Shown: positions 202-24,000, counted from the first letter of the stretch. The stretch is DNA of 24,000 nt from an uncultured Atopobiaceae bacterium (GCA_963539685.1 CAUTMX010000003.1:15313-39312); one strand, 5' to 3'. The notes: a model not told the origin generated them from the letters alone. Numbers and translations: made by a program.

Positions 202-206
202 ATCAA

Positions 207-3578: not shown

Positions 3579-3580
3579 AA

Positions 3581-4839: not shown

Positions 4840-5134
4840 CTCATTACCTCATTCTGCAAGTTTGAGAAATAACATCAATGCTATCTCTACACATCATTAT
4901 AAATAGTTAATTGAAAATAGTCCATCAGTCATCGCTTAGCATAAATCGATAAGTTTATATAAGTTTTTAGGTTAATTCCCTTCCTTTTTCTGTCCTTAGT
5001 TTAGAGACGGATTTGAATTATCAGATTTGACTCAATAAATATGTGATTTGTGTAAGGAGGCAAAAGATGAATCATTAGAGGCTGTGGGATATCGTTCTGG
5101 ATTTTGTAATGAGACGCATAAACAAGGAGTAGAT

Positions 5135-5506: not shown

Positions 5507-5518
5507 TTCTTTAGTAGT

Positions 5519-5544
5519 GACCTCCCCATCAATATGGGGAGGTC
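5519..5544 (+). promoter_or_regulatory. Intercistronic 10-bp GC-rich hairpin between the 123-aa gene and the large gene
   Basis: GACCTCCCCA (5519-5528) pairs perfectly with TGGGGAGGTC (5535-5544) across the loop TCAATA. No T-tract follows, so it is not a canonical terminator. It buries the track ATG at 5534. Confidence 0.5.
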
Positions 5545-5560
5545 GATTGGAGTATCTTCA

Positions 5561-7906: not shown

Positions 7907-8531
7907 GATTTGTATGTATGGGGAAAGAATTAAATTCCGTTAGAGTTTCAATGGCATCTGAGTTTGTAGTTGTAATGTCATATTGGTTATTCTCATGAAC
8001 TAGTAGCCACTCAATATCTTTAGTTGGTACTGAGTGGCTATATAACCTAATAGTTGCTATATTTTCTCCCAAACCGAATGGAAAACGTAAAACATAAAAA
8101 TGGAGAGTTTCTTCTGCTCCAAAATCAAAATCCTCAAGTAAAACAACTCTGGATAATGAAATTTCTCCAGTATTTACTACAGATTTATAATCACGTTGAC
8201 AGGAGTAAATGCAAGGAATGAATAAAAATAATGCTGCACAAAAAGCAACAGAAATATTATAAATAGCAAAAAGGTAAGTTGCTTTTTTAAAAAAAACAAC
8301 CATAGATTTTATTTTAGAAAACAGCATTAGTGAAGTTATCAGAATGAAAATAGACATAAGAAATAATGCCTGTGGTATTGTCAACAAAGTGCCAAGAAAG
8401 CTCACTGGAGTATTATAATCAAGTGAGAAGAAAGAGAAATTTGAGAAGAAGAAATAAACCACTGCCAGGACGCAAATAACAAAATATACGAAGCAAATTA
8501 CCGTGATAAAAACCCCTTTTGACCTGTCCAT
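7893..8531 (-). CDS. Integral membrane protein (about 4 TM helices plus a C-terminal soluble domain), paralogue B
   Basis: 212-aa ORF with the same architecture as 4204-4839 and the shared motif LDYNTPVSFLGTLL. Its 3' end overlaps the 3' end of the convergent large gene by 14 nt (7893-7906). Confidence 0.7.
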   Translation of the reverse strand: MDRSKGVFITVICFVYFVICVLAVVYFFFSNFSFFSLDYNTPVSFLGTLLTIPQALFLMSIFILITSLMLFSKIKSMVVFFKKATYLFAIYNISVAFCAALFLFIPCIYSCQRDYKSVVNTGEISLSRVVLLEDFDFGAEETLHFYVLRFPFGLGENIATIRLYSHSVPTKDIEWLLVHENNQYDITTTNSDAIETLTEFNSFPIHTNLIRL

Positions 8532-8732
8532 CGCGATATCCTATTCTGTAGGTAGATAAAGACATTTCAGTAGAATTTTGCAAACTATTGTATATAAGTA
8601 AATCAAAAGAGTCTATAGCTAAATACAGGGTCTTCTTCATCAAATTCACTGCCAAAGGTTAATTCTCTAAACATTTCTGTCTTTATTTTAAAGGTTACAG
8701 TAATGAGTAAATTAACATAGAAAGGAGGTGCA

Positions 8733-9127
8733 ATGATTGGAAGATGCATTGTATTTTTAATTGCGGATAAATTTAACCAAGGATTGACTATTTTTATTGC
8801 AAACTACGCTTTATTAACATGCGGTTTGATTTATGTATTAGCTCTAATAGCCTAGTTACCATATATAGCTATACAAATCGTAAGAAATTAACTTTGAAAT
8901 TTATTGAAACGGTGATAACAAAAAAACTCCTTATTGTGGGAGTCGTTATACTTTCGGCGCTTTTTGACCTTCTCGCAAAAATCGGCCCTATTTCTATGGT
9001 TCAAATTACAATGACATTCTATATTGTTGAAGAAAGTATGTCTGCAATAAAAGCTTTAAAGAAGCTTGGCATAAAAACACCTGCTAGATTAGTTAAACTA
9101 ATAAAAGAAAAGCTTAATGACAAATAG
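8733..9127 (+). pseudogene. TcdE / phage_holin_4_1-family holin, apparently split by a frameshift near 8845-8860
   Basis: AAAGGAGG then ATG 8733 opens a 40-codon ORF (MIGRCIVFLIADKFNQGLTIFIANYALLTCGLIYVLALIA*, one TM helix) ending at TAG 8853-8855. A different frame (track ORF 8819-9127) continues with ...YSYTNRKKLTLKFIETVITKKLLIVGVVILSALFDLL...FYIVEESMSAIKALKKLGIKTPARLVKLIKEKL. This matches the family core as I recall it from TcdE (..SRKFNSSFG..G.RK.. TM ..D.. ..ILYESVSILKN....GLPVPKRLKEKI). Together the two pieces give the expected ~130 aa and 3 TM helices. Confidence 0.55.
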
Positions 9128-9131
9128 CGTA

Positions 9132-9206
9132 TGGTGCCCCCAACGGGAATCGAACCCGTATTGCCGCCTTGAAAGGGCGATGTCCTAACCGTTAGACGAT
9201 GGGGAC
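9132..9206 (-). tRNA. tRNA-Glu (anticodon UUC), 75 nt, CCA encoded
   Basis: The reverse complement reads GTCCCCATCGTCTAACGGTTAGGACATCGCCCTTTCAAGGCGGCAATACGGGTTCGATTCCCGTTGGGGGCACCA. The acceptor stem is GTCCCCA/TGGGGGC. The anticodon stem TCGCC/GGCGG carries the loop CTTTCAA, giving anticodon TTC. The T arm is ACGGG-TTCGATT-CCCGT. Confidence 0.9.
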
Positions 9207-9274: not shown

Positions 9275-10303
9275 CTATTCTTCGTTTTCCCACCAGTCCA
9301 GTCCGGCTTTAAATGCGTAGTCGCGAGCGCTTTGAATCACGCCAGGCATCGACTCTGCCCACGAAATAAATTCCGGCACGTCGGCGATAATCGCCTCGGC
9401 CTCGTGAACTGCGATAACGTTTTCGGCAAACGTGTCAGGTGTGAAATTGATTCTGCACGGAATGTAGAGATCAACAAAAGATGGCCTGAGCAGCGCATAT
9501 GCCGCTCCCTCGCCGAGGTTGACAAAGCCTTTCAGCGCGCGCTTTGCCGCGGGCATGCGATTCAACTTGAAGAACAGCAGCGTAAACGCCAGACGCATCC
9601 AGGCATTCGACTGATACCCGCAACTCTCGTCAAGCTTGTGGAGCCCTTCTTCATCTTCCAGGCGAGCAAGAACATATGCCAAGGTAAAACGCGCACCCAG
9701 AAAATCTGTTGACGAGAAAAACAAGAGGTCTTCACAGGCTTTTTTGGAGAGCTTGAAGCAGGCGCAATCTGTTGCTACCTGGGCAATCTGCGCATAGAGG
9801 CGCAAAAGTGGTCGAGCTTCAGCGCAGGTCCAAGCGTCGCCGTGAGTTTGCTTTGCTTGCTCTAGTTTTGGTCTAAAGATAGAGTCAAATTCTTTTTGCA
9901 GGTCAAGTAGGTCGTTGAGGATTGCTGCAGGATGATTGTTGGAGATCTGTGCAAGAATTCGCTGTGCTTCAAGATTAATGCTTGTGTTAGCAAGAGCTGG
10001 GTTTTCAATGATATTTGTCATTTGATTATGCAAGAAGTTAAGCAGATCCATCCGACTTGCAAAGAAGTCAGCATCGGAATCAATTTCTTTAGTAATTCCA
10101 TCCTGATACTTGCCAATGACATTGACGTATTGAGCAAAAGCCTTTTCTTCTTCATCGGCAATGAAGTTTTCAGGCGAAGCTTCTACCGCAAGCTTCAACT
10201 CATAGAGAGCTGCCTCAGATACGATGCTCTTCTCTTGTGCACACTTAGCTACCAGGCGGTCTGCCTGCTCACTGACCATATCGTTAGCGGAATGCTTAAT
10301 CAC
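9275..10303 (-). CDS. Helical-repeat (TPR-like) protein of unknown function, downstream paralogue
   Basis: 342-aa ORF. Its GTG start overlaps the upstream stop in a GTGA motif (10300-10303); an alternative ATG lies at 10279. It shares blocks with the upstream protein, e.g. ARFTLAYVLARLEDEEGL versus ARFTLALAYAKLEDEDAL. Confidence 0.65.
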   Translation of the reverse strand: MIKHSANDMVSEQADRLVAKCAQEKSIVSEAALYELKLAVEASPENFIADEEEKAFAQYVNVIGKYQDGITKEIDSDADFFASRMDLLNFLHNQMTNIIENPALANTSINLEAQRILAQISNNHPAAILNDLLDLQKEFDSIFRPKLEQAKQTHGDAWTCAEARPLLRLYAQIAQVATDCACFKLSKKACEDLLFFSSTDFLGARFTLAYVLARLEDEEGLHKLDESCGYQSNAWMRLAFTLLFFKLNRMPAAKRALKGFVNLGEGAAYALLRPSFVDLYIPCRINFTPDTFAENVIAVHEAEAIIADVPEFISWAESMPGVIQSARDYAFKAGLDWWENEE

Positions 10304-11493
10304 TCTGCATCACCACCCGAGTATGGATTATTTGGCCCGTCGATATGCGGTCCGCTTGGTCGCGGGCCAGCGGGACCTCCGGGGAAGTCGGGGCCAACTG
10401 GGCCGTCGGGCACGCTGCCGCCGGATTCACCAGGGAACGAATCGGCAGAAGCGAACAAGGCATTTGCCTGCATTTGAAGTTCTTTTTCTGCCAGCTCAAC
10501 GGTCTTTGGGTCTCTCGCCCTAACCTGATCTGCAAGCCAACGACCAAGAACACCGCGTCCTATCAGGTCATTTCCTTCTTGCAGCAGCACGGTGGCCTCT
10601 GCGATGGCAATGATGAGCTCGTCCTCAGAATAGGGGAGCACGTTAAGGCGCGAGAACTCTCCTTCGGGCAAGTCCTTCTGCACAAAACAGCAAAGCGTTG
10701 CCTCGGGATAGCGCTCAATCAGCAGGTCAAGGTAGTGTTCCGCCTCAACCAACTCACGCTTCTTGAAATGAATAGCCAAGCGAGCCAGCAAAATCCACGG
10801 GTCATCCGCTCCGCGAGGCGGATCAAGCTTGCGGTACTGGTCCATGAGGTTGTCGAGAGCGTCCTCGTCCTCGAGTTTTGCGTATGCGAGTGCAAGCGTA
10901 AAACGAGCATCAGCCGCATCTGCAGCGTCAAGCTCCAGGAGTTTCTCGCCATATGCGATGGCATCTTTGTTTCGGCCGCAGATAAGCGCGCGAGAAGAAA
11001 GCGTTGCCAACCAGCGCTTATAGGGGTTGATTGCCAGCCTCTGGGCAAGCTCTGCCTGCTCGGCAGGAAGCCCTTGCGAGGACTCTTGCGCTTTCTGGTA
11101 GCACGCTGCCTCGACCTGGGGAAGTTTCTCCACAAGGAACTGGTAGTAGGCGTCAAAAAGCCTGCTATTTGAGGCGTGGAGCATGCGCTGGGCATCAAAA
11201 CAATTGGGGTCCAGCTGAATGGCCTGATTGAGGAGGCGTTTTCCCTGGTCGATAAGGGTCTGCGCCTGAGATTCTTCGACAAAAGGCAGGCGATAATCAA
11301 CAATCTCGGCCGCTTGCGCAACTAGATTGAACGCGCGGTCTTCGTCGGTTTGAGGGAGGGAATTGCGGTCGTTGGAGAATCGCCAGTTGAAGTCCTTCAT
11401 CAGCGTAGCAATGCTGTCCTCGTCGCTGACTTGCGTGCGAGCAAAGCGGAGGATAAGCCGCTGGTAGTCTTCTTTTACTGGGTCAAACGCCAC
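10300..11493 (-). CDS. Helical-repeat (TPR-like) protein of unknown function with a Pro/Gly-rich C-terminal tail, upstream paralogue
   Basis: 397-aa ORF with GTG start 11493 behind GAGAAAGGA. The body is alpha-helical and repeat-like. The C-terminus is SFPGESGGSVPDGPVGPDFPGGPAGPRPSGPHIDGPNNPYSGGDAE. Confidence 0.7.
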   Translation of the reverse strand: MAFDPVKEDYQRLILRFARTQVSDEDSIATLMKDFNWRFSNDRNSLPQTDEDRAFNLVAQAAEIVDYRLPFVEESQAQTLIDQGKRLLNQAIQLDPNCFDAQRMLHASNSRLFDAYYQFLVEKLPQVEAACYQKAQESSQGLPAEQAELAQRLAINPYKRWLATLSSRALICGRNKDAIAYGEKLLELDAADAADARFTLALAYAKLEDEDALDNLMDQYRKLDPPRGADDPWILLARLAIHFKKRELVEAEHYLDLLIERYPEATLCCFVQKDLPEGEFSRLNVLPYSEDELIIAIAEATVLLQEGNDLIGRGVLGRWLADQVRARDPKTVELAEKELQMQANALFASADSFPGESGGSVPDGPVGPDFPGGPAGPRPSGPHIDGPNNPYSGGDAE

Positions 11494-11801: not shown

Positions 11802-13016
11802 ATGGGACGTTTTACAAATCCACGCGATCTGTATTTTGGCGAGGGCGCTCGTCACGAGGTTAAGAACCTCAAGGGAAAGAGAGCAGTTATCGTTTCTGGC
11901 GGCAGCTCCATGCGTCGCGGTGGCTTCCTTGATGACATCGAGAATGACCTCAAGTCCGCAGGTTTTGAGGTTGCTCACATTGAGGGCGTCGAGTCCGATC
12001 CTTCCGTTGAGACTGTTATGAGCGGCGCTGCTAAGATGAGCGAGTTCCAGCCAGACTGGATCATTGCTATCGGCGGCGGCTCCCCAATCGACGCAGCTAA
12101 GGCTATGTGGATCAAGTACGAGTATCCAGAGACCACTTTTGAGGACATGTGCAAGGTCTTTGGTCTTCCTGAGCTCCGCACCAAGGCTCACTTCTGCGCA
12201 ATTTCTTCTACTTCCGGTACCGCAACTGAGGTAACCGCATTCTCCATCATTACCGATTACCAGAAGGGTGTTAAGTACCCAATTGCTGACTTCCAGATTA
12301 CTCCTGACGTCGCAATTGTTGACCCTGAGCTCACTTACGGCATGCCTGTTAAGCTTGTTGCTCACACTGGTATGGACGCACTGACCCACGCTATCGAGGC
12401 ATACGTTTCTACTGTTGCTTCTATGTACACCGACGGCGACGCTCTGCACGCAATCCGCGAGATTGTCGAGTGGCTGCCAAAGTCCTACGCAGGCGACAAA
12501 GAGGGACGTCAGCACATGCATGACGCACAGTGCCTCGCTGGTATTGCATTCTCCTCTGGCCTTCTGGGCATCGTTCACTCCATGGCTCACAAGACCGGCG
12601 CTGCATTCTCCGGTGGACACATCATCCACGGTTGCGCAAACGCTATGTACCTGGGCAAAGTCATCCAGTTCAACGCTCGCGACGAGCGCGCAAAGACTCG
12701 CTATGCATTCATTGCTAAGGAGATTCTGCACCTCGAGGGCAACACTGAGGATGAGCTGGTAGAGGCACTTGTTCAGAAGATTCGCGACATCAACGACGCT
12801 CTTAACATCCCACAGGGCATCAAGAACTACGGTGAGGGTGGAACCAAGTCCGAGACCTCCATCATCGACGAGAAGGAGTTCTTCGAGAAGGCTCCAGAGG
12901 TTGCTCGCCTTGCTATCGAGGACGCTTGCACCCTTTCCAACCCACGCAAGCCTACCCAGGAGGAGATGGAGCAGCTGCTTAAGTGCGTCTACTTCGACCT
13001 TCCTGTCGAGTTCTAA
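11802..13016 (+). CDS. Iron-containing (group III) alcohol dehydrogenase
   Basis: 404-aa ORF with an AAGGAGAGG SD. It has the hallmark motifs GGGSPIDAAKA, SSTSGTATEVT, VDPELT, HTGMDALTHAIEAY and GIVHSMAHK (metal-binding His residues). Confidence 0.9.
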   Translation: MGRFTNPRDLYFGEGARHEVKNLKGKRAVIVSGGSSMRRGGFLDDIENDLKSAGFEVAHIEGVESDPSVETVMSGAAKMSEFQPDWIIAIGGGSPIDAAKAMWIKYEYPETTFEDMCKVFGLPELRTKAHFCAISSTSGTATEVTAFSIITDYQKGVKYPIADFQITPDVAIVDPELTYGMPVKLVAHTGMDALTHAIEAYVSTVASMYTDGDALHAIREIVEWLPKSYAGDKEGRQHMHDAQCLAGIAFSSGLLGIVHSMAHKTGAAFSGGHIIHGCANAMYLGKVIQFNARDERAKTRYAFIAKEILHLEGNTEDELVEALVQKIRDINDALNIPQGIKNYGEGGTKSETSIIDEKEFFEKAPEVARLAIEDACTLSNPRKPTQEEMEQLLKCVYFDLPVEF

Positions 13017-13397: not shown

Positions 13398-13625
13398 TTT
13401 TTCGGCACATAATTTTGAGGGCAAAAATTACGTATTCATAGAAATGAATTTAATAGTGTAATTATGCAGAATTTTGAAAGTCGACCAGTGAAATTGCACG
13501 GCAAGCCTCCGGGAGGATGCTAGAACAACAAATCTTGCACAGATTTTCTGTGTGATTTCAAATCGGTCAGATTACTTGCGCCATTTCCGGGTATGGAATT
13601 CATACTTTTTTCGCGAAGGAGTGCT

Positions 13626-14654
13626 ATGGATTACTGTCTTTCGTACTTTTCAGCGTTTAATTTATTGATGAGTTCCTCTAGGCCATTTGATTCGCTGCCG
13701 GCATCAAATGCTATGGTCAGAGCGCCACTTGTTCCTGAATCAGCTCCGGGAGTATCGACTGAACGAGAGCTTGCCGCCTACTATGGACACCTTCCAGAAA
13801 TACAAGGCATGCGTCTTCACCAGGAGCCTAAAGGCAAGGTTGACCTGCTTATTAATGATGTGAATTCCACATTTGCAAAACAGCACGCTACGCTTCACAT
13901 CTGTAATTCAAAGGTTTCGCCATCGTCGCTCCTGCCCATAGGTGCTGACTTAAAAGGATTTATTACTTCTCCAGAATTCACTTATTTGCAGATTGCTTCA
14001 AAGCTTGATTTTATTGGAACAATCCTTGCAGGTAGTGCCTTGTGTTCCGATTATTTTTTGAATCAGGATGGCCATGGTGGAGTTTCGCAACGCCAAAATG
14101 GCCCTCTGACAAATCGTGCTGCAATCGCAAAGTTTCTTTCCACGCAAGGAAGAAAGCGTGGCATCATCCCAGCTAAACGAGCGCTTCAGCACATCGTAGA
14201 GAAAGCTCGGTCGCCCCGAGAAGCTTCGCTTGCCCTTCTCTTATGCCTCCCGTATAACCTTGGTGGCTTTAACCTCGGAACTGTCGAACTCAATAGGCCA
14301 ATCGAGCTTGAAAATCGATATGGCGAGAAAATCACTCGAATTCCTGACTTAACCATTCAGCTCAAGGATAAAAGAAGGAAGCAGGCCACGGTGCTGCTAG
14401 ATTATGATCCAGCGGTAACGCACGCTGGCGGACAAAGAGTCATGCGCGATCTGGACAGAGAAAACGAGCTGGTAACGGGCGTGCAATGTCCACATTTTTC
14501 AGTTTCTGGAGAGATGCTTAAAAGCTTCTCAAGCGTTCAAGGTCTGGTCCGTCAGATTCGAGAGTCTACAGGAATAGCCGCGCGTGACACAACTATTTCT
14601 GATCTTGAAGATCGTCAACAAGCACTGTGGATGCGACTATTCAAAGCCAGGTAG
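13626..14654 (+). CDS. DUF559 / Vsr-like (PD-(D/E)xK-fold) endonuclease-domain protein of unknown function
   Basis: ATG 13626 lies behind GAAGGAG (13615-13621); the track start ATG 13593 has no SD. The C-terminal half, ARSPREASLALLL...IPDLTIQL...ATVLLDYDPAVTHAG..RVMRDLDRENELV, follows the ARSP-x-ES ... DL ... EYDG-x-x-H ... D-x-x-R-x-x-x-L pattern of actinobacterial DUF559 proteins. Confidence 0.55.
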   Translation: MDYCLSYFSAFNLLMSSSRPFDSLPASNAMVRAPLVPESAPGVSTERELAAYYGHLPEIQGMRLHQEPKGKVDLLINDVNSTFAKQHATLHICNSKVSPSSLLPIGADLKGFITSPEFTYLQIASKLDFIGTILAGSALCSDYFLNQDGHGGVSQRQNGPLTNRAAIAKFLSTQGRKRGIIPAKRALQHIVEKARSPREASLALLLCLPYNLGGFNLGTVELNRPIELENRYGEKITRIPDLTIQLKDKRRKQATVLLDYDPAVTHAGGQRVMRDLDRENELVTGVQCPHFSVSGEMLKSFSSVQGLVRQIRESTGIAARDTTISDLEDRQQALWMRLFKAR

Positions 14655-14796: not shown

Positions 14797-15438
14797 GTGG
14801 AAGTCAACGGCCTTATCGACCATACAAACTTGAAGCAAAACGCGACTGCTGAAGACATCAAGAAACTTTGCGCCGAGGCAAAGCAGTACAAGTTTGCAAC
14901 TGTCGCCATCAATTCTTGCTGGGTTTCCCTGGCTCACGCCGAGCTCGAGGGCTCTGGAGTTGGCATTACTTCCTGCATCGGTTTCCCTCTGGGCGCCGCT
15001 TCAACTGCAACTAAGGTCGCTGAGGCCAAGCAGAGCGTTGCCGACGGCACCACCGAGATTGACATGGTCATCAACGGTGGCCACCTGGTCGCTGGCGATG
15101 ACGACTACGTTATCGCTGACATCAAGGCTGTCGTTGAGGCCGCGGGTACCGTGCCCGTTAAGGTAATCCTGGAGTGTTGCCTGCTTGATGACGAGCAGAT
15201 CGTTCGTGCTTGCAAGGATTGCATGGCTGCTGGGGCTGCGTTCGTCAAGACAAGCACTGGCTTCAGCACCGGTGGCGCAACTGTTCACGACGTTGCCCTG
15301 ATGAAGCAGACTGTCGGTGACACTTGCAAGGTTAAGGCTGCTGGCGGCATCCACAATAAGGCTGACGCTGAGGCAATGGTTGCGGCTGGCGCAGATCGCT
15401 TGGGCTGCTCCAGCGGAATCGCTATCGTCACCGAGTAG
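14797..15438 (+). CDS. deoC: Deoxyribose-phosphate aldolase
   Basis: GTG 14797 lies 6 nt after AAGGAG; the track TTG 14734 start is less likely. The sequence IDHTNLKQNAT..., CIGFPLGA, EIDMVIN, PVKVILE (the K of the active site), FVKTSTGF (the Schiff-base Lys) and KVKAAGGI is the short Gram-positive-type DeoC. Confidence 0.9.
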   Translation: MEVNGLIDHTNLKQNATAEDIKKLCAEAKQYKFATVAINSCWVSLAHAELEGSGVGITSCIGFPLGAASTATKVAEAKQSVADGTTEIDMVINGGHLVAGDDDYVIADIKAVVEAAGTVPVKVILECCLLDDEQIVRACKDCMAAGAAFVKTSTGFSTGGATVHDVALMKQTVGDTCKVKAAGGIHNKADAEAMVAAGADRLGCSSGIAIVTE

Positions 15439-15447
15439 CTCGCTGAG

Positions 15448-15537
15448 CTGGAGTTTGCCGGACCGATAGTCCACTGAACTGGGGTTTTCAGGCCGGTAGT
15501 CCACTGAACTGGAGTTTGCCAGCCGGCACCTTACTGA
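15448..15537. repeat. ~30-nt tandem repeat, 3 units, immediately downstream of deoC
   Basis: CTGGAGTTTGCCGGACCGATAGTCCACTGAA (15448-15478), CTGGGGTTTTCAGGCCGGTAGTCCACTGAA (15479-15508) and CTGGAGTTTGCCAGCCGGCACCTTACTGA (15509-15537). Confidence 0.85.
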
Positions 15538-15549
15538 TAGATAAATGAA

Positions 15550-15588
15550 AACGACCTCGTGGCATGTGCTGCGAGGTCGTTATTTGTT
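15550..15588. terminator. Bidirectional rho-independent terminator between convergent deoC and the GRE-activase gene
   Basis: AACGACCTCG (15550-15559) pairs with CGAGGTCGTT (15572-15581) around a 12-nt loop. It is flanked by A-rich ATAAATGAAA on the left and T-rich TATTTGTT on the right. Confidence 0.75.
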
Positions 15589-15674
15589 GCAATGTAAAGC
15601 GCGGAAACTGGCGAGAAAAACTGTTGGTACTGGCGAGAAACCCGTGTGAGTCGTGGTCCGCGCCGCCGTGGCAA

Positions 15675-16619
15675 CTAGCTGACGACAACCTCGCCAAAGC
15701 CCAGGTTGCGGGCCTGCGACTCAATTGCTTGCATGCGCTCGTCGCTTGGAGAAGGGGAGTTCTCCATCGGTCCGCGCACGCCAAAGCGCCTGAACTTCAT
15801 GAGGCGAATGCGCGTCTGACCAACCTTCTCGCCAAGTGTTAAGGCAATGCCGTCAACTGCGGCTTCGGCGTCGTTCCAGCCTTCGGTCACGATAACGCGA
15901 ACCTCTTCCAGCTTGTTTTGCTCGGCCAAAAACGCAAGATTTTTGCGGACCGTGACGCCATTCTCGCCGGTCAGATGCTCAAACCACTGATCGTCCCAGG
16001 CTTTAACGTCAAGCATGACGCCGCTCGAGAGGGCCAGCAGATCGCGGTACTCGGTGAAGTCGATGGTGCCATTTGAGTCGATGAGGCAGCTCAGACCGGC
16101 CGCGTTGCAGTAGGTGAAGAGCTCGTAGAGGAAGTCGGGGCGGAGCATGCATTCGCCGCCTGACGTGGTGATTCCGCGGATGAACGGCATGTTGGAAATG
16201 CAGCGGTCGGCCACCTCACGGGCGCTGAGCAGTTCAATCTTTGGCGTGGACTTATGTTGGCAAACCTTGATGCAGTTGTCGCAGTTGATGCAAATGGAGT
16301 TGTTCCACACAACCTTGCCGTCAGATACGGACAGGGCGTGAGCTGGGCATGGTTTGACGCACGCCTGGCAGGAGATGCACTCTACCTGGGTCTCGGGGTT
16401 GTGGCAGTAGGCACAGCGAATGTTGCAGCCTTGGAGGAAGACGGCGGTTCGGCTTCCTGGGCCATCTACCAGCGAGAAGGGAATGATCTTATTGACAGGA
16501 GCAACACACCCGGTAGGATGTGCTGCTCCTGAATTGGTTGCCGCGTCGCTTGCGGTCGCGGGACGCGATGCTTCGGCGCGTGTTACTCCCAAAGTTGTTT
16601 CTGTTGCAGTGAAGGTCAC
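15675..16619 (-). CDS. yjjW: Glycyl-radical-enzyme activating protein (radical SAM), YjjW-type
   Basis: 314-aa ORF with GTG start 16619, 19 nt after the upstream stop. It has the radical-SAM cluster motif CNIRCAYCHNPE plus two ferredoxin-type motifs, CISCQACVKPCP and CINCDNCIKVCQ. It lies immediately downstream of the glycyl-radical enzyme. Confidence 0.85.
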   Translation of the reverse strand: MTFTATETTLGVTRAEASRPATASDAATNSGAAHPTGCVAPVNKIIPFSLVDGPGSRTAVFLQGCNIRCAYCHNPETQVECISCQACVKPCPAHALSVSDGKVVWNNSICINCDNCIKVCQHKSTPKIELLSAREVADRCISNMPFIRGITTSGGECMLRPDFLYELFTYCNAAGLSCLIDSNGTIDFTEYRDLLALSSGVMLDVKAWDDQWFEHLTGENGVTVRKNLAFLAEQNKLEEVRVIVTEGWNDAEAAVDGIALTLGEKVGQTRIRLMKFRRFGVRGPMENSPSPSDERMQAIESQARNLGFGEVVVS

Positions 16620-16638
16620 GATTGCGCAGCTCTTCTCG

Positions 16639-18141
16639 CTAGTCGCTCATGCGAACCTTGCGGTCGGCAAGGTGGTTAGCGGTGAAGTTGCCCAGGCCGT
16701 CGTGAGCGGTGTCCTGAAGAACAACGTCGCCAGACTGGAACTTCTTCATCTCGGAACGCTTAGCCAAAAAGCCGGTAATGCGGACCAGGTCACCCTCGGA
16801 GCTATAGAACGAGAGGTACTTGTCGTCGATGGAGAATGCGGCCTTGACCACGTCAACGACAGCGTCTGGGTTGCGCTCAGCGGTTGGCTCAGCTGGGAAA
16901 ATGTCGGAGACGCCGCTGTTGAAGAAGCGGTGCATGCGTGCGCTGTGGCGAATGTGGTCGTAGAGGTTTGCAGGCTCGTCGCCAACTTTGATGCGGACAC
17001 CAGGGGTAACGCCCTGCTGGTCGGAGAAGCCAGCCTGTGCGTGCAGGGTGAAGCGGCCGCCAAAGACCTCGGAGTAGACGGCGTCAAAGCTGTTGACCTG
17101 GTCGGCAATCTTGACCATGATCTGATCGGCCAGCTCGTTTGCCTCATCATCCTTGCCGTAGGTGCGGCTGCTATCAAGGTGCAGCAGCTCAGCCACGCAC
17201 TCGCTCATGCCGGCAACGCCAAACATGCCGCAGAAGCGCTCGCGAGAAATGAGGCCTTCCTTAGCCAGGAAGCTGGTCTCAAAGAAGTTGGAATCCTCAA
17301 CAATAAAGCGGACGCGCTCGTTCATGAAGTTCAGGACCTCGCCGGTTGCGGTTGGCAGCAGGTTGTTCATGAAGTCGTCAACGTTGGTTGCAAGTTTTGC
17401 AAGGCCAGAGAGAAGTACGCGGCTCAAAGTGTAAGCGCCGCCGCCCATAGGAAGAACGTTGTAGCAGCTTACGACGGTGTACTCGCCAGGGTAGGTCTCT
17501 TTGTGGATGCGGTGGTTAGCAAAAGCAGGGTTGGAGCAGACCATGGTGGTCTTGACTGCCAGGCGCATGAACTCGTCGGATGTAATCTCTGGATCGTACT
17601 TGAGAGTGAAGTTTGGAACGGCGTTCATGAGCTCGCGATCAACCTCAAGCAGCAGTCTACCTGCGCGAGTGTCCTCTGGTCCAATGTTTGCGTGGCAGTA
17701 ACCACTTGCAACGGTGCGGTCGATGTGGTTCAGGAAGCGGCGCAGACGAGGCTTAATCTCTGCGTCGGTCATGCCCTCCAGGAATGGGTCAATAATCTTG
17801 TCCAGCTGACCAACATAGACAGGGCGGCTGGTGACAGAAGGAACGTTGTCGTAGAGAGCGGCAAGGCCCCAGAGTAGGTCATCGAGGGTCTCTGGCTTGT
17901 CAAAGCGCAAAAACTCGGAACCGTTCTGAGCAAATACCTGGTAGTCAGGGCAGATGTAGCGAGGACGGTAAGGAGCGTTGCCCTCACACATGTCGTCAAG
18001 CGCGTGAGCTGCAAAAAGGCGGTCAAACTCAGCGGTGGTCTTGATAGGGTGCTCGGAGTTCTCGGCAGCCTGAGCCAGGTGCAGAACCTTCTGCTTGTAC
18101 GAGAGGTTGTCGGAAGTAATGATGTCCATGAACTCGCTCAT
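16639..18141 (-). CDS. yjjI: YjjI-family (DUF3029) putative glycine-radical enzyme
   Basis: 500-aa ORF with AAGGAG 5 nt upstream of ATG 18141. It is much shorter than PFL-type GREs. The C-terminal SSEGDLVRITGFLAKR matches the glycyl-radical fingerprint R-[VI]-x-G-[FYW]. Its size and its pairing with a YjjW-like activase fit the YjjI family as I recall it. Confidence 0.75.
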   Translation of the reverse strand: MSEFMDIITSDNLSYKQKVLHLAQAAENSEHPIKTTAEFDRLFAAHALDDMCEGNAPYRPRYICPDYQVFAQNGSEFLRFDKPETLDDLLWGLAALYDNVPSVTSRPVYVGQLDKIIDPFLEGMTDAEIKPRLRRFLNHIDRTVASGYCHANIGPEDTRAGRLLLEVDRELMNAVPNFTLKYDPEITSDEFMRLAVKTTMVCSNPAFANHRIHKETYPGEYTVVSCYNVLPMGGGAYTLSRVLLSGLAKLATNVDDFMNNLLPTATGEVLNFMNERVRFIVEDSNFFETSFLAKEGLISRERFCGMFGVAGMSECVAELLHLDSSRTYGKDDEANELADQIMVKIADQVNSFDAVYSEVFGGRFTLHAQAGFSDQQGVTPGVRIKVGDEPANLYDHIRHSARMHRFFNSGVSDIFPAEPTAERNPDAVVDVVKAAFSIDDKYLSFYSSEGDLVRITGFLAKRSEMKKFQSGDVVLQDTAHDGLGNFTANHLADRKVRMSD

Positions 18142-18289
18142 TAGTGCTCCTTACGTTTATCCTGCAAAAACAGGGTTGTGATTACGACGGGTACGTCGGT
18201 CGTTCCAAGTTATGGTGCACCGCATTGCGCGGCGCGCTGCCTGGGGCGAGAAGAACGGTCTTGCCCAAGCGTTGTGCCAGGTACAGAGG

Positions 18290-19057
18290 TTAGTCCAGAA
18301 GGTGGGATTCTCCCTCGTGTTTCATTGCGTCGTCGAGGCGCTGGAACTGCCTCTCGGTAATGACAATCTTGCCGTGCTGAACAGAAACCATGCCCCTCTC
18401 CTTAAGTTCGTCGATGCCGCGGGCAACAGTTTTTGTGCTGGTACCAATCTTGTCTGCCAGCTCTTGCCTGGTCAGACGCACCGTAAACGGCCACTCAACA
18501 ACGCCGCGGTGAATCTGATCGCGCGTCAGCTCGCTAAGCATGTACATCAGGCGCTTGGTTCCGCTCCAGGTCAGCAGGCTGCGCTCGTAACCAGACTGAC
18601 GCGTCAGATTCTTGATAATCCAGCGCGAGCGGGTGAGAAGTGCCTCAGGGTCCGAACGAATCCACTGCAGGTAGTCCTCGCGTGGAACCGAAATAAACTC
18701 GCAGCCGGAAGTTGCGGTGAGCGATCCCAGGTAAAACGGGCTCTCGCTAATAACTTCCATCTCGCCAAAAGCAACGGGCGCACGATACTCGTCAATAACA
18801 TACGTGCTACCTGCGGAATTATGCGACGTAGTGCGCACAGTGCCGCGGCACAGAATGTACACGTTATCAACGCGGTCCAGCATGTGGACAAGGGTCTGTC
18901 CGGAGTTAAGACGAATCTGCCTACAGTGAGAAAGACGATTAGCGGGAACGCGAGAAGCCCATTTGATGATCTTCTTCCGAACGTCGGAATCAAGACTGTC
19001 AAGGTAGGTTAGAACGTTCACACGAGACCTCGCTGTTCTTGCTTCGTAAGTCCTCAT
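18290..19057 (-). CDS. Crp/Fnr-family transcriptional regulator
   Basis: 255-aa ORF with an N-terminal cNMP-binding-like beta-roll (YILCRGTVRT...FGEMEVI) and a C-terminal HTH (LTRQELADKIGTSTKTVARGIDELKERGMV). The start is uncertain: ATG 19057 has no SD, while GTG 19021 is preceded by GCGAGG. Confidence 0.85.
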   Translation of the reverse strand: MRTYEARTARSRVNVLTYLDSLDSDVRKKIIKWASRVPANRLSHCRQIRLNSGQTLVHMLDRVDNVYILCRGTVRTTSHNSAGSTYVIDEYRAPVAFGEMEVISESPFYLGSLTATSGCEFISVPREDYLQWIRSDPEALLTRSRWIIKNLTRQSGYERSLLTWSGTKRLMYMLSELTRDQIHRGVVEWPFTVRLTRQELADKIGTSTKTVARGIDELKERGMVSVQHGKIVITERQFQRLDDAMKHEGESHLLD

Positions 19058-19159
19058 TACAGGACAGTTTTGGCTTAAGTTTGAGTAATTGTACCTGCTC
19101 CCTAAAATAAAAATAAGGACTTTTGTCCACTTTTTGAGACAATTTTCTTAAACGGTATC

Positions 19160-19225
19160 GGGCTGCGATTGGGCTGCGATTAGGTTGCGGCCAACTAGCG
19201 ATCAACCTGCGGTCAAGCTGCTGCA
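19160..19225. repeat. 11-nt tandem repeat, 6 degenerate units, upstream of the Crp/Fnr gene
   Basis: The units are GGGCTGCGATT, GGGCTGCGATT, AGGTTGCGGCC, AACTAGCGATC, AACCTGCGGTC and AAGCTGCTGCA. Confidence 0.8.
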
Positions 19226-19630
19226 AGACATAAAAAGCCCCCACATCAAATGAACTGCCTCCCATTTCTTGGACACGAGAAATAGGAGGCAGTTCAAAAC
19301 ACACCTAAGTCAGATAATCTGTCAAAAAGACGTATACATTACGCTGAAAATACCTCAAACATGCAGATTATCGTCATTAGGTGTGTAAAATGCCCGCATC
19401 TGAGCAGATTATCCGACTTAGGTGTGTTCCGTAGATACGAAATTTACCTATAGTTAAATCTTTTATATGACGCTATTCATTTTCAAGCATATTAGATGAA
19501 GTTTATGCATAAAGATGCATATCAGGTAGTGCGACCGCCTAGCTGCCTGGCTATCTTGATTAGGAACATGTCAATTCTTTAGCAAAACCTACCAAAGCTG
19601 CTGCAAGACAGAAAAAGCCCCCACGTCAAA
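19215..19630. repeat. 36-bp direct repeats (34/36 identical) bounding a 344-bp AT-richer non-coding segment
   Basis: AAGCTGCTGCAAGACATAAAAAGCCCCCACATCAAA (19215-19250) and AAGCTGCTGCAAGACAGAAAAAGCCCCCACGTCAAA (19595-19630). The second copy contains the 5' arm of the psuG terminator. Confidence 0.85.
19300..19426. repeat. Three copies of a 22-nt motif (one forward, two inverted) able to form mutually exclusive long hairpins
   Basis: M1 is CACACCTAAGTCAGATAATCTG (19300-19321). M2 is CAGATTATCGTCATTAGGTGTG (19364-19385). M3 is CAGATTATCCGACTTAGGTGTG (19405-19426). M3 is the reverse complement of M1 at 21/22 positions, and M2 at 18/22. Confidence 0.8.
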
Positions 19631-19642
19631 CGACGTAGGGGC
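19611..19642 (-). terminator. Rho-independent terminator of the psuK-psuG operon
   Basis: The minus strand reads GCCCCTACGTC-GTTT-GACGTGGGGGC followed by TTTTTC (one mismatch in an 11-bp stem), 77 nt downstream of the psuG stop. Confidence 0.75.
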
Positions 19643-19718
19643 CAAAAGAAATGCGGTGCTTACGCGGTGCTTGCACGTGTACTTATGTACGCTTGTACGT
19701 TTGAGCGCGTGCGAGCAC

Positions 19719-20645
19719 TTACTTGCGGTTGCAAACCTCTGCAGCAACCTTTGCGCCAAGAGCAACGTTGTTGAAGACCAACTGAATGTTGGACTCAAGG
19801 GAGTTGTTGCCGGTAATCTCAGCAACCTTTGCCAGCAAGAATGGTGTGGACTCCTTGCCGTGGATACCGTTAGCCTCTGCCTCTGCAAGGGCCTTCTCGA
19901 TAGCTGCGTCAATAGTGTCCTTATCCATTGCATACTGCTCAGGAATTGGGTTGGTAACCAGAAGACCGCTGTTCATGCCAATCTGCTGCTGGGTAGTAAA
20001 GATCTCTGCCAGCTCAGCAGGGGAGTCAACGCGGTAGTCAACGCTAAAGCCGCTCTTGCGGGTGTAGAACGCAGGAAGCTCCTCGGTCTGGTAACCAAGT
20101 ACTGGAACACCCTTGGTCTCCAGGTACTCAAGGGTAAGGCCAAGGTCAAGAATGGACTTTGCACCAGCGCAAATGACCATAACAGGAGTCTGTGCAAGCT
20201 CCTCGAGGTCAGCGGAGATGTCCATGGTGGTCTCAGCGCCACGGTGAACGCCACCAATGCCGCCGGTTGCAAAGACGTCGATGCCTGCCATGTGAGCAAT
20301 CATCATGGTAGTGGTGACGGTAGTTGCACCGTCCTTCTTCTCAGCGATGATAACAGGGAGGTCACGGCGGCTAACCTTGGCAACCTCGCGGCCCTTCTTG
20401 CCCAGGTAGTCAATCTCGTCAGCAGAAAGACCGGCACGCATCTGGCCGTTAATAATTGCGATAGTTGCAGGAATTGCACCGTTGTCGCGGATAATCTGCT
20501 CAACCTTCAGAGCGGTCTCGACGTTCTGTGGGTAAGGCATACCGTGAGAAATGATGGTGGACTCCAGAGCTACAACAGGCTTGTTCTGCTCAAGAGCCTC
20601 TTTGACCTCGTCAGATACAACGAGAAAATCCTTCAGGTTTGACAT
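19719..20645 (-). CDS. psuG: Pseudouridine-5'-phosphate glycosidase
   Basis: 308-aa ORF with GGAG 5 nt upstream. VALESTIISHGMPYPQN, ATGGIGGVHRG, DISADLEEL and VICAGAKSILD are the PsuG/YeiN (IndA family) hallmarks. Confidence 0.92.
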   Translation of the reverse strand: MSNLKDFLVVSDEVKEALEQNKPVVALESTIISHGMPYPQNVETALKVEQIIRDNGAIPATIAIINGQMRAGLSADEIDYLGKKGREVAKVSRRDLPVIIAEKKDGATTVTTTMMIAHMAGIDVFATGGIGGVHRGAETTMDISADLEELAQTPVMVICAGAKSILDLGLTLEYLETKGVPVLGYQTEELPAFYTRKSGFSVDYRVDSPAELAEIFTTQQQIGMNSGLLVTNPIPEQYAMDKDTIDAAIEKALAEAEANGIHGKESTPFLLAKVAEITGNNSLESNIQLVFNNVALGAKVAAEVCNRK

Positions 20646-20684: not shown

Positions 20685-20738
20685 GTGCCGTGCAGACACG
20701 CTGTGCCGTGCGAACGCTTTGTGCCGTGCAGTCGCGCT
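20685..20738. repeat. 18-nt tandem repeat, 3 units, filling the psuK-psuG spacer and overlapping the psuK stop
   Basis: GTGCCGTGCAGACACGCT (20685-20702), GTGCCGTGCGAACGCTTT (20703-20720) and GTGCCGTGCAGTCGCGCT (20721-20738). Confidence 0.85.
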
Positions 20739-21819
20739 AAATACCTGCGCGCTTAATAACCTCGTCAACGTTGAGCTCGCCGTTGATGGTGTCCTCACCC
20801 TCAATGGCTATGCTGGAAGCAGCCATGCCTACCAGGCCGGTTTGCTCAAGCGTCATACCCTGAGTGTACGCCCAGGTAACTCCCGCCATCATGGCATCTC
20901 CTGCGCCTGTCATGTTGACCAGCTTTGCAGGAAGCAGCGGCAAGCGAACGGTCTTCTCGTGATCAGCGCAAAGAAGGCCTTTCTCGCCAAGGGAGATAAA
21001 CACACGCTTGAGGCCTGTTGCAAGCAGCTCGTGAGCTGCGGCTTCAAGGGAGGTATCGTCGGTGATCTTGATACCCGAGAGCATCTCGGCCTCAAGGCGA
21101 TTTGGTTTGAGTGTGTGAATCTTTCCCAGGACCTTCTTGAGCTTCTGCGCCTTGATGGAAGAAACGGGATCGCAGAAGATGGGGCAGGTCACGTTCTTGG
21201 CAATGAACTCGATGGTCTGCTGAGGCAGGTTGGTATCAATTACGCAAGCTGCGGCGTGCTGGATAACATCCAGGCGCTCCTCGATACGCTCAGGGGTGAC
21301 ATACTCGTAAATCTGCATGTCATTGATGGCTTCCTGCATCTCACCGTGCTCGTCCATAATGAAGAGGTAGGTGGAAGTGGAAGCGCCCGGCACGGTAATA
21401 GAAGCGTCAATGTCAATACCGCAATCCAGGCAGCCCTCTTTGAGCTCTCTAGCACGATAGTCCTCGCCAAAAGCGGTGAGCAGACGAACGTCACTGTCGA
21501 GAATGGCCAGGTTGTGGGCAACATTTCTTCCAACGCCACCAAAGGACATGGTGACCTTGCCAGGGTTTGAATCTCCAGCCACAAGGGAAGTGTCCGGGCG
21601 TCCAGCAATATCCATGTTGGCAGCGCCAATCACAATAAAGTAGGGACGCTCGCTCAAAATGTAGCGGCGGCCCAAAATTGCGCCCTTTGCGGTAAGGTTG
21701 GAGATGTGAACCGAAACAGAAGAACGCGAAATACCTGCACGCTCTGCGATTTCCTTCTGAGTAATGGAAGGCTGCTCTTTAATCCAGTTGAAAATCATCT
21801 GTTCTCGATTGGTGAGCAT
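20737..21819 (-). CDS. psuK: Pseudouridine kinase (PfkB family) with an N-terminal winged-helix DNA-binding domain
   Basis: ATG 21819 lies 4 nt after AGGAGG; the track TTG 21837 is less likely. The N-terminal MLTNREQMIFNWIKEQPSITQKEIAERAGISRSSVSVHISNLTAKGAI is HTH-like. The PfkB motifs are FGGVGRNVA and NMTGAGDAMMAG. It is co-oriented and adjacent to psuG. Confidence 0.85.
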   Translation of the reverse strand: MLTNREQMIFNWIKEQPSITQKEIAERAGISRSSVSVHISNLTAKGAILGRRYILSERPYFIVIGAANMDIAGRPDTSLVAGDSNPGKVTMSFGGVGRNVAHNLAILDSDVRLLTAFGEDYRARELKEGCLDCGIDIDASITVPGASTSTYLFIMDEHGEMQEAINDMQIYEYVTPERIEERLDVIQHAAACVIDTNLPQQTIEFIAKNVTCPIFCDPVSSIKAQKLKKVLGKIHTLKPNRLEAEMLSGIKITDDTSLEAAAHELLATGLKRVFISLGEKGLLCADHEKTVRLPLLPAKLVNMTGAGDAMMAGVTWAYTQGMTLEQTGLVGMAASSIAIEGEDTINGELNVDEVIKRAGI

Positions 21820-21850
21820 CAGGCCTCCTAGCAGCAAAAATAGAATCCGA

Positions 21851-22226: not shown

Positions 22227-23417
22227 ATGCCTAAACGTGTTTTTGTAGTTGTTCTTGATAGTTTTGGCATCGGCGAAGAGCCTGATGCAGCGGCATACGG
22301 AGACGAGGGTAGCAATACCCTTTGTGCATGCGCAACAAGTGGCGTTCTTAACATCCCAAATATGACAAAGCTGGGCCTTCTTAATATTGATGGAGCACTT
22401 GATACTGTGTATGACGTTGATCTGAAGCCAATTGAGTCTCCCGAGGGCGCATATGCTCGCATGCAGGAGAAATCCGCTGGTAAAGACACTACGGTTGGTC
22501 ACTGGGAGATGGCAGGCGTCATTTCTCCAAAGAAGTTCCCAACCTATCCTGATGGTTTCCCACAGGAGGTCATTGAGGAGTTTGAGCAGAAGACGGGCCG
22601 TAAGGTTCTCTGCAATAAGCCTTACTCCGGAACTGATGTTATTAGAGACTTTGGTAAAGAGCACGTAGAGACTGGTGCTCTGATTGTCTATACCTCAGCA
22701 GATTCTGTTTTCCAGATTGCTGCTCATGAGGACGTGGTAAGTCCCGAGAAACTCTATGAGTATTGCCGCATTGCGCGTGAGATTCTTCAGGGTGAGCACG
22801 GCGTTGCTCGTGTTATTGCTCGTCCTTTTGAGGGGGAGTGGCCATACCAGCGCACTTCTCGCCGTCATGACTTCTCGCTTGAGCCAACAGGTCCAACTAT
22901 GCTTGATCGCCTTAAAGAGAACGGCTTTGACGTTCTTTCTATTGGCAAGATTTATGACATCTTTGCTCACCGCGGCATGACTGAGTTTGAGTTTACTACC
23001 TGCAACGCAGACGGAATTCAGAAGACTATTGAGGCTACTAGCAAAGACTTCAACGGTCTGTGCTTCACCAACCTTGTTGATACCGACATGATTTACGGTC
23101 ACCGCAATGACCCTGTGGGATATTCCAACGCTCTTTCTTACTTTGACGAGCGTATTCCTCAGATTATTGAGGGCCTTCGTGAGGATGACCTATTCATTAT
23201 TACCGCAGATCATGGCTGTGATCCGGTAACACCATCTACTGATCACTCTCGTGAGTACGTGCCACTGCTTATTACGGGTCCAAAGGTCAAGCCAAACACC
23301 AACCTTGGTACAACCACTACGTTTGCCGACATGGCCGAGACAATTCTTGATTATTTTGGCGTTGAGCAACTTGGTGTTGGAACTTCTCACCTGTCAGAGA
23401 TTCTTAAGGAGAACTAA
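22227..23417 (+). CDS. deoB: Phosphopentomutase
   Basis: ATG 22227 lies 4 nt after AGGAGG; the track TTG 22176 is less likely. [31 protein letters not shown] and [10 protein letters not shown] are DeoB hallmarks. Confidence 0.92.
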
Positions 23418-24000
23418 TGGCTACTACCCCAACTCCCCATAACGCTGCTGTTGAGGGCCAGATTGCTAAAACTGTCCTCATGCCAGGCGATCCTCTGCGC
23501 GCTAAGCTTCTTGCAGACACGTATCTGGAGAACGTTGAGCAGTTCAACACCGTTCGCAACATGTTTGGCTACACCGGCACCTACAAGGGACAGCCAGTCT
23601 CCGTTATGGGTTCTGGTATGGGTATGCCTTCCATTGGTATTTATTCTTACGAGCTCTTTAATTTCTATGGAGTCGAGAATATCTTGCGTATTGGTAGCGC
23701 AGGTGGTCTTGCTCCTGACGTAAAGCTCAGAGACATTGTTATTGGTATGTCTTCCAGCACTGATTCTAATTATCCATCACAGTACGGAATGCCTGGAACT
23801 ATTGCACCTACCGCAGACTTTGGCCTGCTAAGCAAGGCTGTTGCTGGTGCAGAAAAGCTGGGTTATCCCGTTCGCGTTGGTAATATCCTGGCAAGCGACG
23901 TGTTCTATACCGTAGACAACTCGCTTACCAAATGGGCAAGCATGGATGTTCTTGCCGTTGAGATGGAGTCGGCAGCCCTGTATCTCAACGCCATGCACGC
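23417..24000 (+). CDS. deoD: Purine nucleoside phosphorylase, DeoD type (5' part; runs off the window end)
   Basis: It is absent from the ORF track because there is no stop in the window. Its ATG overlaps the deoB stop (TAATG). The translation [80 protein letters not shown]... is colinear with E. coli DeoD (..[21 protein letters not shown]...[27 protein letters not shown]..). Confidence 0.92.

Follow-up and report, generated by a model that had tools for sequence, protein, structure and literature searches.

A YjjI-family glycyl radical enzyme, its activase, and a Crp-like regulator among nucleoside catabolism genes of an uncultured Atopobiaceae bacterium

Introduction

In Escherichia coli K-12, the gene of the orphan enzyme YjjI (b4380) and that of YjjW (b4379) lie next to the deo genes in the order yjjW(–) yjjI(–) and then deoC(+) deoA deoB deoD, an adjacency that is already visible in genome browsers. 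Here we describe a new member of this catalogued family (Pfam, NCBIfam) of glycyl radical enzymes (GREs). It is encoded, together with a radical S-adenosylmethionine (SAM) activase, in a 24,000-nucleotide stretch of DNA (hereafter the window) from an uncultured Atopobiaceae bacterium (GCA_963539685.1 CAUTMX010000003.1:15313-39312), where the pair also lies among genes of deoxyribose and nucleoside catabolism.

E. coli yjjI is directly activated by FNR (PMC3688515), and chromatin immunoprecipitation (ChIP) gives a CRP peak in the yjjI/deoC intergenic region (PMC4287617). In Yersinia intermedia, yjjI is induced 4.3-fold anaerobically (PMC3792023). A study from 2011 reported that yjjI of E. coli and Salmonella co-clusters with narG in expression and carries FNR-like motifs, and proposed from this co-expression that YjjI has a role in nitrogen metabolism (PMC3228777). 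YjjI is absent from a 2026 review of the glycyl radical superfamily (PMC13450708). We found no functional study of YjjI/YjjW (DUF3029) in the literature searched.

Class III ribonucleotide reductases (RNRs), such as T4 and E. coli NrdD, have a second active-site Cys, which is essential for reduction, and a C-terminal Cys4 zinc site. BMP-family nucleoside operons include those of Bacillus subtilis NupNOPQ, Streptococcus mutans RnsBACD, and Treponema pallidum PnrA; to our knowledge, the operons described contain no radical enzyme. The eliminase and isomerase classes of pyruvate formate-lyase (PFL)-like GREs use the glutamate of a C-x-E motif on the Cys loop, and two GREs, YbiW and PflD, act on sugar phosphates (PMC13450708).

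Results

A YjjI-type GRE and its activase

Open reading frames (ORFs) of the window were listed in six frames and scanned with Pfam and NCBIfam (TIGR/NF) models. An earlier note on this DNA, made from the sequence alone, had read a 500-amino-acid (aa) YjjI-type GRE followed 19 nt later by a radical-SAM activase, with a Crp/Fnr gene immediately upstream of the pair. The family scans and the motifs agree with this reading, and the core of the locus is as follows.

16639-18141 (–), yjjI, YjjI-family glycyl radical enzyme of 500 aa (TIGR04040 and PF11230)
15675-16619 (–), yjjW, radical-SAM activase (TIGR04041), starting 19 nt downstream of yjjI
18290-19057 (–), Crp/Fnr-family regulator gene (cNMP_binding and HTH_Crp_2), 148 nt upstream of yjjI
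19116-19129 (no strand), predicted operator of the Crp-like regulator, AGGACTTTTGTCCA

The YjjI protein, which carries DLVRITGFLAKR, scores 607.7 bits against TIGR04040 (cut-off 498.3) over residues 3-497 and 708.8 bits against PF11230 over profile positions 1-485 of 485. YjjW scores 385.9 bits against TIGR04041 (cut-off 250.2) and has the motif CNIRCAYC (CX3CX2C) as well as CISCQACVKPC and CINCDNCIKVC, both of the ferredoxin-like form CX2CX2CX3C. The window YjjI is ~39–40% identical to E. coli YjjI and has the same Gly loop, SCYN Cys loop, adjacent activase, and deoC neighbor. The source of the window is a species of Atopobium (Atopobiaceae, Coriobacteriia), and near-identical YjjI proteins (99–100%) are encoded on several contigs of metagenome-assembled genomes (MAGs). 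An exhaustive HMMER search gave 435 matches at E ≤ 0.001. Many of these are fragments, and at 50% identity only ~20 representatives are full-length. YjjI is thus a compact family.

Nucleoside genes near yjjI in other genomes

To compare neighborhoods, we took species-representative genomes and collected 80 YjjI loci, each with flanks of at most 10 kb per side (sample 1). The neighboring ORFs were clustered with no labels given in advance, and dereplication at 85% YjjI identity reduced the loci to 40 groups. The top neighbor was YjjW (38 of the 40 groups), and next came the double-ATPase subunit of an ABC transporter (26), ABC permeases (25), and a BMP-family binding protein (22). In 19 groups, the gene directly upstream of yjjI was that of a Crp-like regulator, and DeoB (11), PsuK (10), PsuG (9), Cdd (7), and DeoC (7) were also found. 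The recurrent phosphorylase passes the uridine phosphorylase equivalog model TIGR01718 with 301 bits (cut-off 280).

We then counted genes in a set of 45 groups, consisting of window-related genomes, Enterobacterales, and two added metagenomic loci, again dereplicated at 85% identity. Nucleoside or pyrimidine genes occurred within 10 kb of YjjI in 35 of these (transporter 27, phosphorylase 22, DeoB 12, PsuG/K 11, DeoC 8, Cdd 8), and YjjW adjoined YjjI in 43. The binomial P for 35/45 is ~1e-20 even with a generous 15% null, for groups that are phylogenetically non-independent. The enrichment near YjjI homologues that the earlier note anticipated is therefore present. The main partners of YjjI are nucleoside transporters and phosphorylases, not deoC, which corrects the reading in that note.

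Five phyla (Actinomycetota, Bacillota, Pseudomonadota, Spirochaetota, and Elusimicrobiota) contribute nucleoside-linked loci. These loci differ from each other, with at least ten gene orders, both orientations, and several transporter families. The same place at YjjI loci is taken by transporters of different families, namely the BMP-type ABC, NupC, NupG-like MFS, and ECF types, the last lying beside Udp and having no assigned substrate. In Edwardsiella, deoCABD is divergent from yjjIW and a NupC transporter gene follows yjjW, and a Christensenellaceae MAG has ECF transporter, Udp, and YjjI together. In Neobacillus (L086 5051-13723), nrdD-nrdG lies 3 kb upstream of crp-yjjI-yjjW, after which comes a NupG-like MFS gene resembling nucleoside:H+ symporters. 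The neighbors of YjjI match Firmicute BMP-type nucleoside operons in the binding protein, double ATPase, and two permeases, and also in Cdd, Udp or DeoD, DeoB, and DeoC. From these data we consider it likely that there is a real functional tie of YjjI to nucleoside or pentose catabolism in the clade of the window.

Several observations weigh against extending this tie to the whole family or to one chemistry. Loci of Proteus and Providencia YjjI have no nucleoside link. A second sample of 80 metagenomic loci from distant YjjI lineages, with the most divergent representative as lead sequence, added 32 new groups, and nucleoside or pentose neighbors were found in only eight of these (5 of the 15 with full flanks). 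The linked loci in this sample had NupC, DeoD, ribokinase-like genes, or BMP-type ABC genes with Udp or with Cdd and DeoB. When the neighbors in the 32 groups were clustered without bias, none but YjjW recurred (adjoining YjjI in 30), and yjjI-yjjW is mostly an isolated pair in distant lineages. DeoC is near YjjI in only 8/45 groups, and a PF00756 esterase is as frequent as DeoC (~9 groups), which hints at other chemistry. The nucleoside association is real but clade-dependent, because only 8/32 distant groups carry the link. It is strong in a clade of Coriobacteriia and Bacillota that includes the window, present in E. coli and Edwardsiella, and weak or absent elsewhere. A family-wide nucleoside link mostly vanishes in the distant metagenomic loci and was dropped.

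It could be that the association reflects inherited synteny or chance, and that YjjI works in an unrelated anaerobic process such as the nitrogen or nitrate role proposed in 2011. The isolated pairs and unrelated contexts of most distant lineages and of Proteus and Providencia fit this idea, as do the non-independence of the dereplicated groups and the co-clustering of yjjI with narG and its FNR-like motifs (PMC3228777). However, the gene orders, orientations, transporter families, and phyla of the 35 linked groups are so varied that a single inherited ancestral arrangement is insufficient. Nitrate, nitrite, or nitric oxide genes were not recurrent near YjjI in the neighbor clustering of both samples (77 groups), so the placement of YjjI in nitrogen metabolism (PMC3228777) was not retained. 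FNR control alone accounts for the co-expression with nar genes. We regard this alternative as improbable.

The PF00756 esterase, which is distantly like S-formylglutathione hydrolase, recurs by yjjW in Oscillospirales-like and some other genomes (loci L045 (11587), L079, L066, L059, L056, L040, L073, L054, L087, L135, and L164). In one MAG (L087 8712-20543), yjjI-yjjW is followed by seven genes on the same strand that encode the esterase, a LarA-like nickel-pincer racemase, a TudS-related desulfidase, PreA (409 bits; cut-off 335), a cyclic amidohydrolase, a PrpD-like protein, and a carbamoylase-family amidase. From their family matches, PreA, the amidohydrolase, and the amidase are a predicted set for reductive pyrimidine catabolism.

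This last locus bears on whether the radical step is on the sugar or on the base, that is, on uracil or a modified pyrimidine freed by Udp, Cdd, or PsuG. In L087 the pair lies ahead of the reductive pyrimidine pathway genes, and at another YjjI locus a PreA-like gene is downstream. The commonest enzymatic partners in Bacillota are uridine phosphorylase and cytidine deaminase, PsuK/PsuG are partners in the window and other Coriobacteriia, and Udp, Cdd, and PsuG all yield uracil. By contrast, the linked phosphorylase is the purine-type DeoD in Coriobacteriia and Enterobacterales. We know of no need for a radical enzyme in reductive pyrimidine catabolism, which counts against a base substrate, and three invariant arginines of YjjI (see below) would suit an anionic substrate more than a neutral base. 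The cleavage enzymes differ in base (DeoD purines, Udp/Cdd pyrimidines, PsuG pseudouridine) and have the pentose phosphate in common, and the DeoB, DeoC, and ribokinase-like neighbors all act on the sugar, using sugar phosphates. From this shared pentose phosphate and these sugar-acting genes, we therefore favor the pentose rather than the base and think a step on the base rather unlikely.

Conserved residues and predicted fold of YjjI

Residue conservation was examined in 22 representatives of the YjjI family, down to ~30% identity. The glycyl-radical loop R-[IV]-[TS]-G-[FY] is present in the window YjjI as DLVRITGFLAK, with G457 and R454 invariant. The Cys loop is S225-C226-Y227-N228, and C226 is the sole invariant Cys. 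All full-length representatives retain R-[IV]-[TS]-G-[FY] and S-C-[YF]-N. By these motifs G457 (RITGF) is the predicted radical site and C226 (SCYN) is presumed to be the thiyl site. Further invariant residues are E53, R61, Y62, D141, H150, N177, T187, S225, N228, R241, E295, H367, Q369, and R383. C202 was considered as a second catalytic Cys and rejected; it is kept in close alignments, but distant members have T, A, S, L, or I in its place. Beyond position 357, no column has Cys at an occupancy of 40% or more.

An AlphaFold (AF2) model made from a 42-sequence alignment was confident (predicted local distance difference test (pLDDT) 90.6, predicted template modeling score (pTM) 0.91). It has G457 at the tip of a hairpin with strands 452-455/458-461 and C226 at the tip of another with strands 221-224/228-231, an arrangement expected for the Cys loop and Gly loop. 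The Gly loop and catalytic Cys that the earlier note proposed to look for in a structure are thus placed as anticipated in the model, the Cys being the single invariant one. Foldseek comparison of the model with the PDB gave 100 matches at E ≤ 0.001. The best 22 were all chains of class III RNR (NrdD), with template modeling (TM) scores of 0.65–0.75 and E down to 3e-16; after NrdD, the matches listed included PflD, YbiW, propanediol dehydratase, and hydroxyproline-type enzymes. As modeled, YjjI shares the ten-stranded barrel fold of NrdD/PFL that is typical of the superfamily.

In class III RNR (PDB 8p23, 4coj, 1h7a), the likeness to YjjI includes both this closest fold and the thiyl Cys on a finger-loop hairpin, and P. 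copri NrdD has the Gly loop RITGYL in common with the YjjI family. When PDB sequences were searched with a profile, no solved structure of a YjjI protein was found; in this search the Gly loop (lvRITGYLV) aligned to that of NrdD (LQRITGYLV), with NrdD at E = 0.14 only. Tentatively, hhalign puts C226 opposite C384 of E. coli NrdD, in a weak alignment (probability 1.3%). The only other Pfam match of YjjI besides PF11230 is to the NrdD family PF13597, at 19.3 bits and below the gathering score of 26.2, and no NrdD model is listed among its NCBIfam matches. Compared to NrdD, YjjI has 10–14% sequence identity and is ~100–200 residues shorter than the matched chains.

The PFL-like GREs (propanediol dehydratase, HypD, YbiW, and PflD) have the same barrel as YjjI at a lower Foldseek rank, and their matched chains are ~770–810 aa as compared to ~500 aa for YjjI. 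Matches to PF02901 and PF01228 were not reported for YjjI at E ≤ 1e-3, and the SCYN loop with its invariant N228 is without the PFL-like C-x-E motif. The activase is of another kind than that of NrdD. YjjW scores 39.9 and 65.2 bits against NrdG models, below the cut-offs of 126 and 131; among activase models other than YjjW, it matches the HypD activase and TIGR02494 best. Activases of PFL-like GREs have two ferredoxin-like cluster motifs, as does YjjW. In type, YjjW is a PFL activase that carries a ferredoxin insert and is unlike NrdG.

These features bear on the possibility that YjjI has a biosynthetic role as a pared-down reductase of ribonucleotides or ribonucleosides, making deoxyribonucleotide precursors from salvaged nucleosides. 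The closest folds are all NrdD, the Gly-loop sequence is as in NrdD, the PF13597 match is there if weak, and nucleoside importers adjoin YjjI. Neither a second invariant Cys nor a conserved C-terminal Cys cluster was found among the 22 representatives, however, and YjjI, with one invariant Cys, no zinc-binding Cys, and a PFL-type activase, is not a canonical reductase. The sub-threshold PF13597 score and the shorter chain also count against a reductase. The nrdD-nrdG pair 3 kb from crp-yjjI-yjjW in Neobacillus could be taken as support, and it also means that a class III reductase and YjjI coexist side by side. In addition, the genomes already encode NrdD, and the DeoC, Udp, and Cdd neighbors are catabolic. 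A reductase of this kind seems very unlikely to us.

The Crp-like regulator and its predicted operator

The FNR oxygen sensor of E. coli has a four-Cys Fe-S pattern, three N-terminal and one central. The window regulator matches PF00027 with 44.4 bits and PF13545 (HTH_Crp_2) with 44.3 bits, both above cut-offs, and scores 22.8 bits against the FNR model NF008365 (cut-off 228). Its three Cys (C45, C70, and C119) do not form an FNR-type pattern, there being no N-terminal CX2CX5C. From the absence of this pattern, the regulator probably responds to a small ligand and not to oxygen itself. Enterobacteria do not have this regulator at the locus. E. coli has no psuGK at the yjjI site either, and its yjjI relies on FNR instead (PMC3688515).

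The earlier note had suggested that the Crp/Fnr protein is the local regulator. This receives support from the orthologous gene directly upstream of yjjI in 19 of the 45 groups and from a conserved predicted operator upstream of the regulator gene, a palindrome with the consensus AGGACAnnTGTCCT (AGGACA-NN-TGTCCT). The core GGACA-NN-TGTCC is exact at this place in 11 of 17 groups, with near-matches in most others. Across YjjI loci there are 64 such sites as compared to 16 in shuffled sequence. In some genomes the palindrome is in an intergenic region common with a divergent psuK, cdd, or deoB gene. The PF00756 esterase gene of L045 is preceded, at a distance of 93 nt, by a second perfect site (AGGACATTTGTCCT), which suggests that the esterase is in the same regulon.

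Of the matches in the window, AGGACTTTTGTCCA is the best; it has two mismatches to AGGACAnnTGTCCT and lies ~59 nt upstream of the regulator ATG. No convincing site was found in the window upstream of deoC, psuK, deoB, or the alcohol dehydrogenase (ADH) gene, which counts against a shared control with nucleoside catabolism there. Matches with three mismatches numbered 12 as compared to 8.1 expected, which is within chance. The window thus gives no sign that its regulator also controls the deo and psu genes beside the module, because only the site at the regulator's own gene stands out. By contrast, crp-yjjI-yjjW is probably an autoregulated unit of its own, because two terminator-like hairpins (19643-19616 and 19296-19251) part psuG from its promoter and cut psuG off from the regulator gene.

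Other genes of the window

The remaining features around the module are the following.

14797-15438 (+), deoC, deoxyribose-phosphate aldolase (TIGR00126, 252.8 bits), with a GTG start and a GGAG ribosome-binding site
15550-15581 (+), hairpin terminator between the convergent deoC and yjjW, with a 14-bp stem, 8 GC pairs, and a T-rich tail
19719-20645 (–), psuG, pseudouridine-5'-phosphate glycosidase (PF04227, 462 bits)
20737-21837 (–), psuK-like PfkB kinase with an N-terminal helix-turn-helix (HTH) (PfkB, 171 bits, and HTH domains)
~22227-23417 (+), deoB, phosphopentomutase (NF003766, 520.9 bits; cut-off 256), with an ATG behind GGAGG
23417-24000 (+), deoD-type nucleoside phosphorylase (PNP_UDP_1, 109.7 bits), running past the window end
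11802-13016 (+), iron-containing ADH (Fe-ADH) (Fe-ADH and ADH_Fe_C domains), resembling the C-terminal half of AdhE

All the genes that the earlier note placed within 6 kb of the pair (Fe-ADH, psuG-psuK, and deoB-deoD) were found, as was the convergent deoC. The psuK-like kinase scores 243 bits against the pseudouridine kinase model NF007355, below the cut-off of 540. The likeness to E. coli that the note had drawn holds for yjjW-yjjI beside deo genes and does not hold for the orientation of deoC, which is divergent from yjjI in E. coli and convergent on yjjW in the window. The nearby ADH is present in the window, but its link to YjjI is restricted to one lineage; Fe-ADH is near YjjI in 5 of the 45 groups, and only in Atopobiaceae-like genomes.

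The yjjW-yjjI-crp stretch (15001-19000) is the GC peak of the window, at 0.55–0.58 as compared to 0.45–0.54 for the flanking deo and psu genes. Because of this higher GC, the module may have been acquired separately. An Rfam scan of the window found no riboswitch, and a single tRNA was the only match.

The psuG-regulator gap (660 nt) contains a direct repeat of 39 nt (19215-19253 and 19595-19633). Its copies are 92% identical, and each touches or overlaps a terminator-like hairpin (19251-19296 and 19616-19643). The gap also has three copies of a 23–24 nt motif, CAGATTATC..CTTAGGTGTGT, one inverted (19298-19321) and two direct (19363-19386 and 19404-19427). For these repeats and motifs, possible readings are binding sites, a small RNA, and a miniature mobile element.

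At the left of the window, positions 1-9206 form an AT-rich block (GC 0.32–0.39 as compared to 0.45–0.58 rightwards) that ends at the tRNA (9135-9206, –). It has ABC-3C-type defense genes (DUF2326 at 207-1871 and CTD11 at 2091-3248), a gene for a YlxM-like HTH protein, a pair of paralogous membrane protein genes (4204-4839 and 7893-8531), a gene for a 790-aa Rv2525c-like glycoside hydrolase with a peptidoglycan-binding domain (5534-7906), and a holin gene (8819-9127). The block resembles an island, or what is left of a prophage, with the tRNA as its integration site. Between the block and deoC are three ORFs without an informative family match, of 342 aa (9275-10303), 397 aa (10300-11493), and 353 aa (13593-14654). 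None of the three has a Pfam match, and the 353-aa ORF has no NCBIfam match either. The 397-aa ORF has a C-terminal tail rich in Gly and Pro.

Discussion

We lean toward the explanation that the crp-like gene, yjjI, and yjjW are a self-contained module in which an oxygen-sensitive GRE and its activase carry out a radical step on a pentose, as an accessory to anaerobic nucleoside catabolism. The interpretation of the earlier note, that YjjI may act anaerobically on an intermediate derived from a pentose or nucleoside, is supported as a guilt-by-association hypothesis.

In the proposed mechanism, nucleosides would be imported and then cleaved by DeoD, Udp, or PsuK/PsuG, and the pentose phosphate would then pass through DeoB. 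YjjW would generate a radical on G457, which would move to C226, and C226 would abstract a hydrogen from the substrate, the radical step of YjjI being on the pentose (or ribosyl) unit. As suggested by the fold, the likeliest chemistry would be hydrogen abstraction beside a hydroxyl and loss of the neighboring hydroxyl, as in RNR or diol dehydratase, to give a deoxy-pentose. With an external reductant, such as formate, the product could be 2-deoxyribose-5-phosphate for DeoC. In the genome of the window, DeoC would then split the product to glyceraldehyde-3-phosphate and acetaldehyde, the latter being reduced by the Fe-ADH.

The analysis supports family membership, the catalytic motifs, the predicted fold, the pairing with the activase, the enriched nucleoside context, and the conserved regulator with its predicted operator, and from these we infer the substrate and the reaction. 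The invariant R61, R241, and R383, together with E53, D141, E295, H150, and H367, would fit a small anionic, phosphorylated, and polar substrate, as judged from the alignment. The link of YjjI to its substrate comes from genomic context, that is, guilt by association, and this counts against the proposal. So does the active site, where a strictly RNR-like reduction is doubtful because there is no second invariant Cys, and a dehydration or another reductant would be needed. A redox-neutral dehydration is at least as plausible as a reduction. In other clades, the PF00756 esterase neighbor hints at an ester, lactone, or dicarbonyl intermediate. For these reasons, we offer pentose deoxygenation specifically as a tentative and somewhat doubtful proposal.

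A bolder version is that YjjI is the first RNR-like catabolic GRE, a deoxygenase or dehydratase acting on a free pentose phosphate or a ribonucleoside and not on a nucleotide. The ribose of imported ribonucleosides would become a 2-deoxy product that is split to C2 and C3 units. The splitting would be by DeoC, or would follow an esterase-dependent route in other clades. We think this version unlikely. If it is true, the route would amount to a "deoxyribose shunt" under anaerobic conditions, going around both the pentose phosphate pathway and phosphoketolase.

Compared to the literature searched, three aspects appear to be new: the quantified, clade-limited link of YjjI to nucleoside uptake and cleavage, the conserved regulator with its predicted operator, and the single-Cys anatomy that is RNR-like but non-RNR. 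Together, the context, fold, and regulator reduce the candidate substrates of YjjI, an orphan enzyme of E. coli, to a few that are open to anaerobic tests. If pentose deoxygenation is true, it would be a new reaction class in the superfamily and a new way for anaerobes of the gut and mouth to ferment nucleosides.

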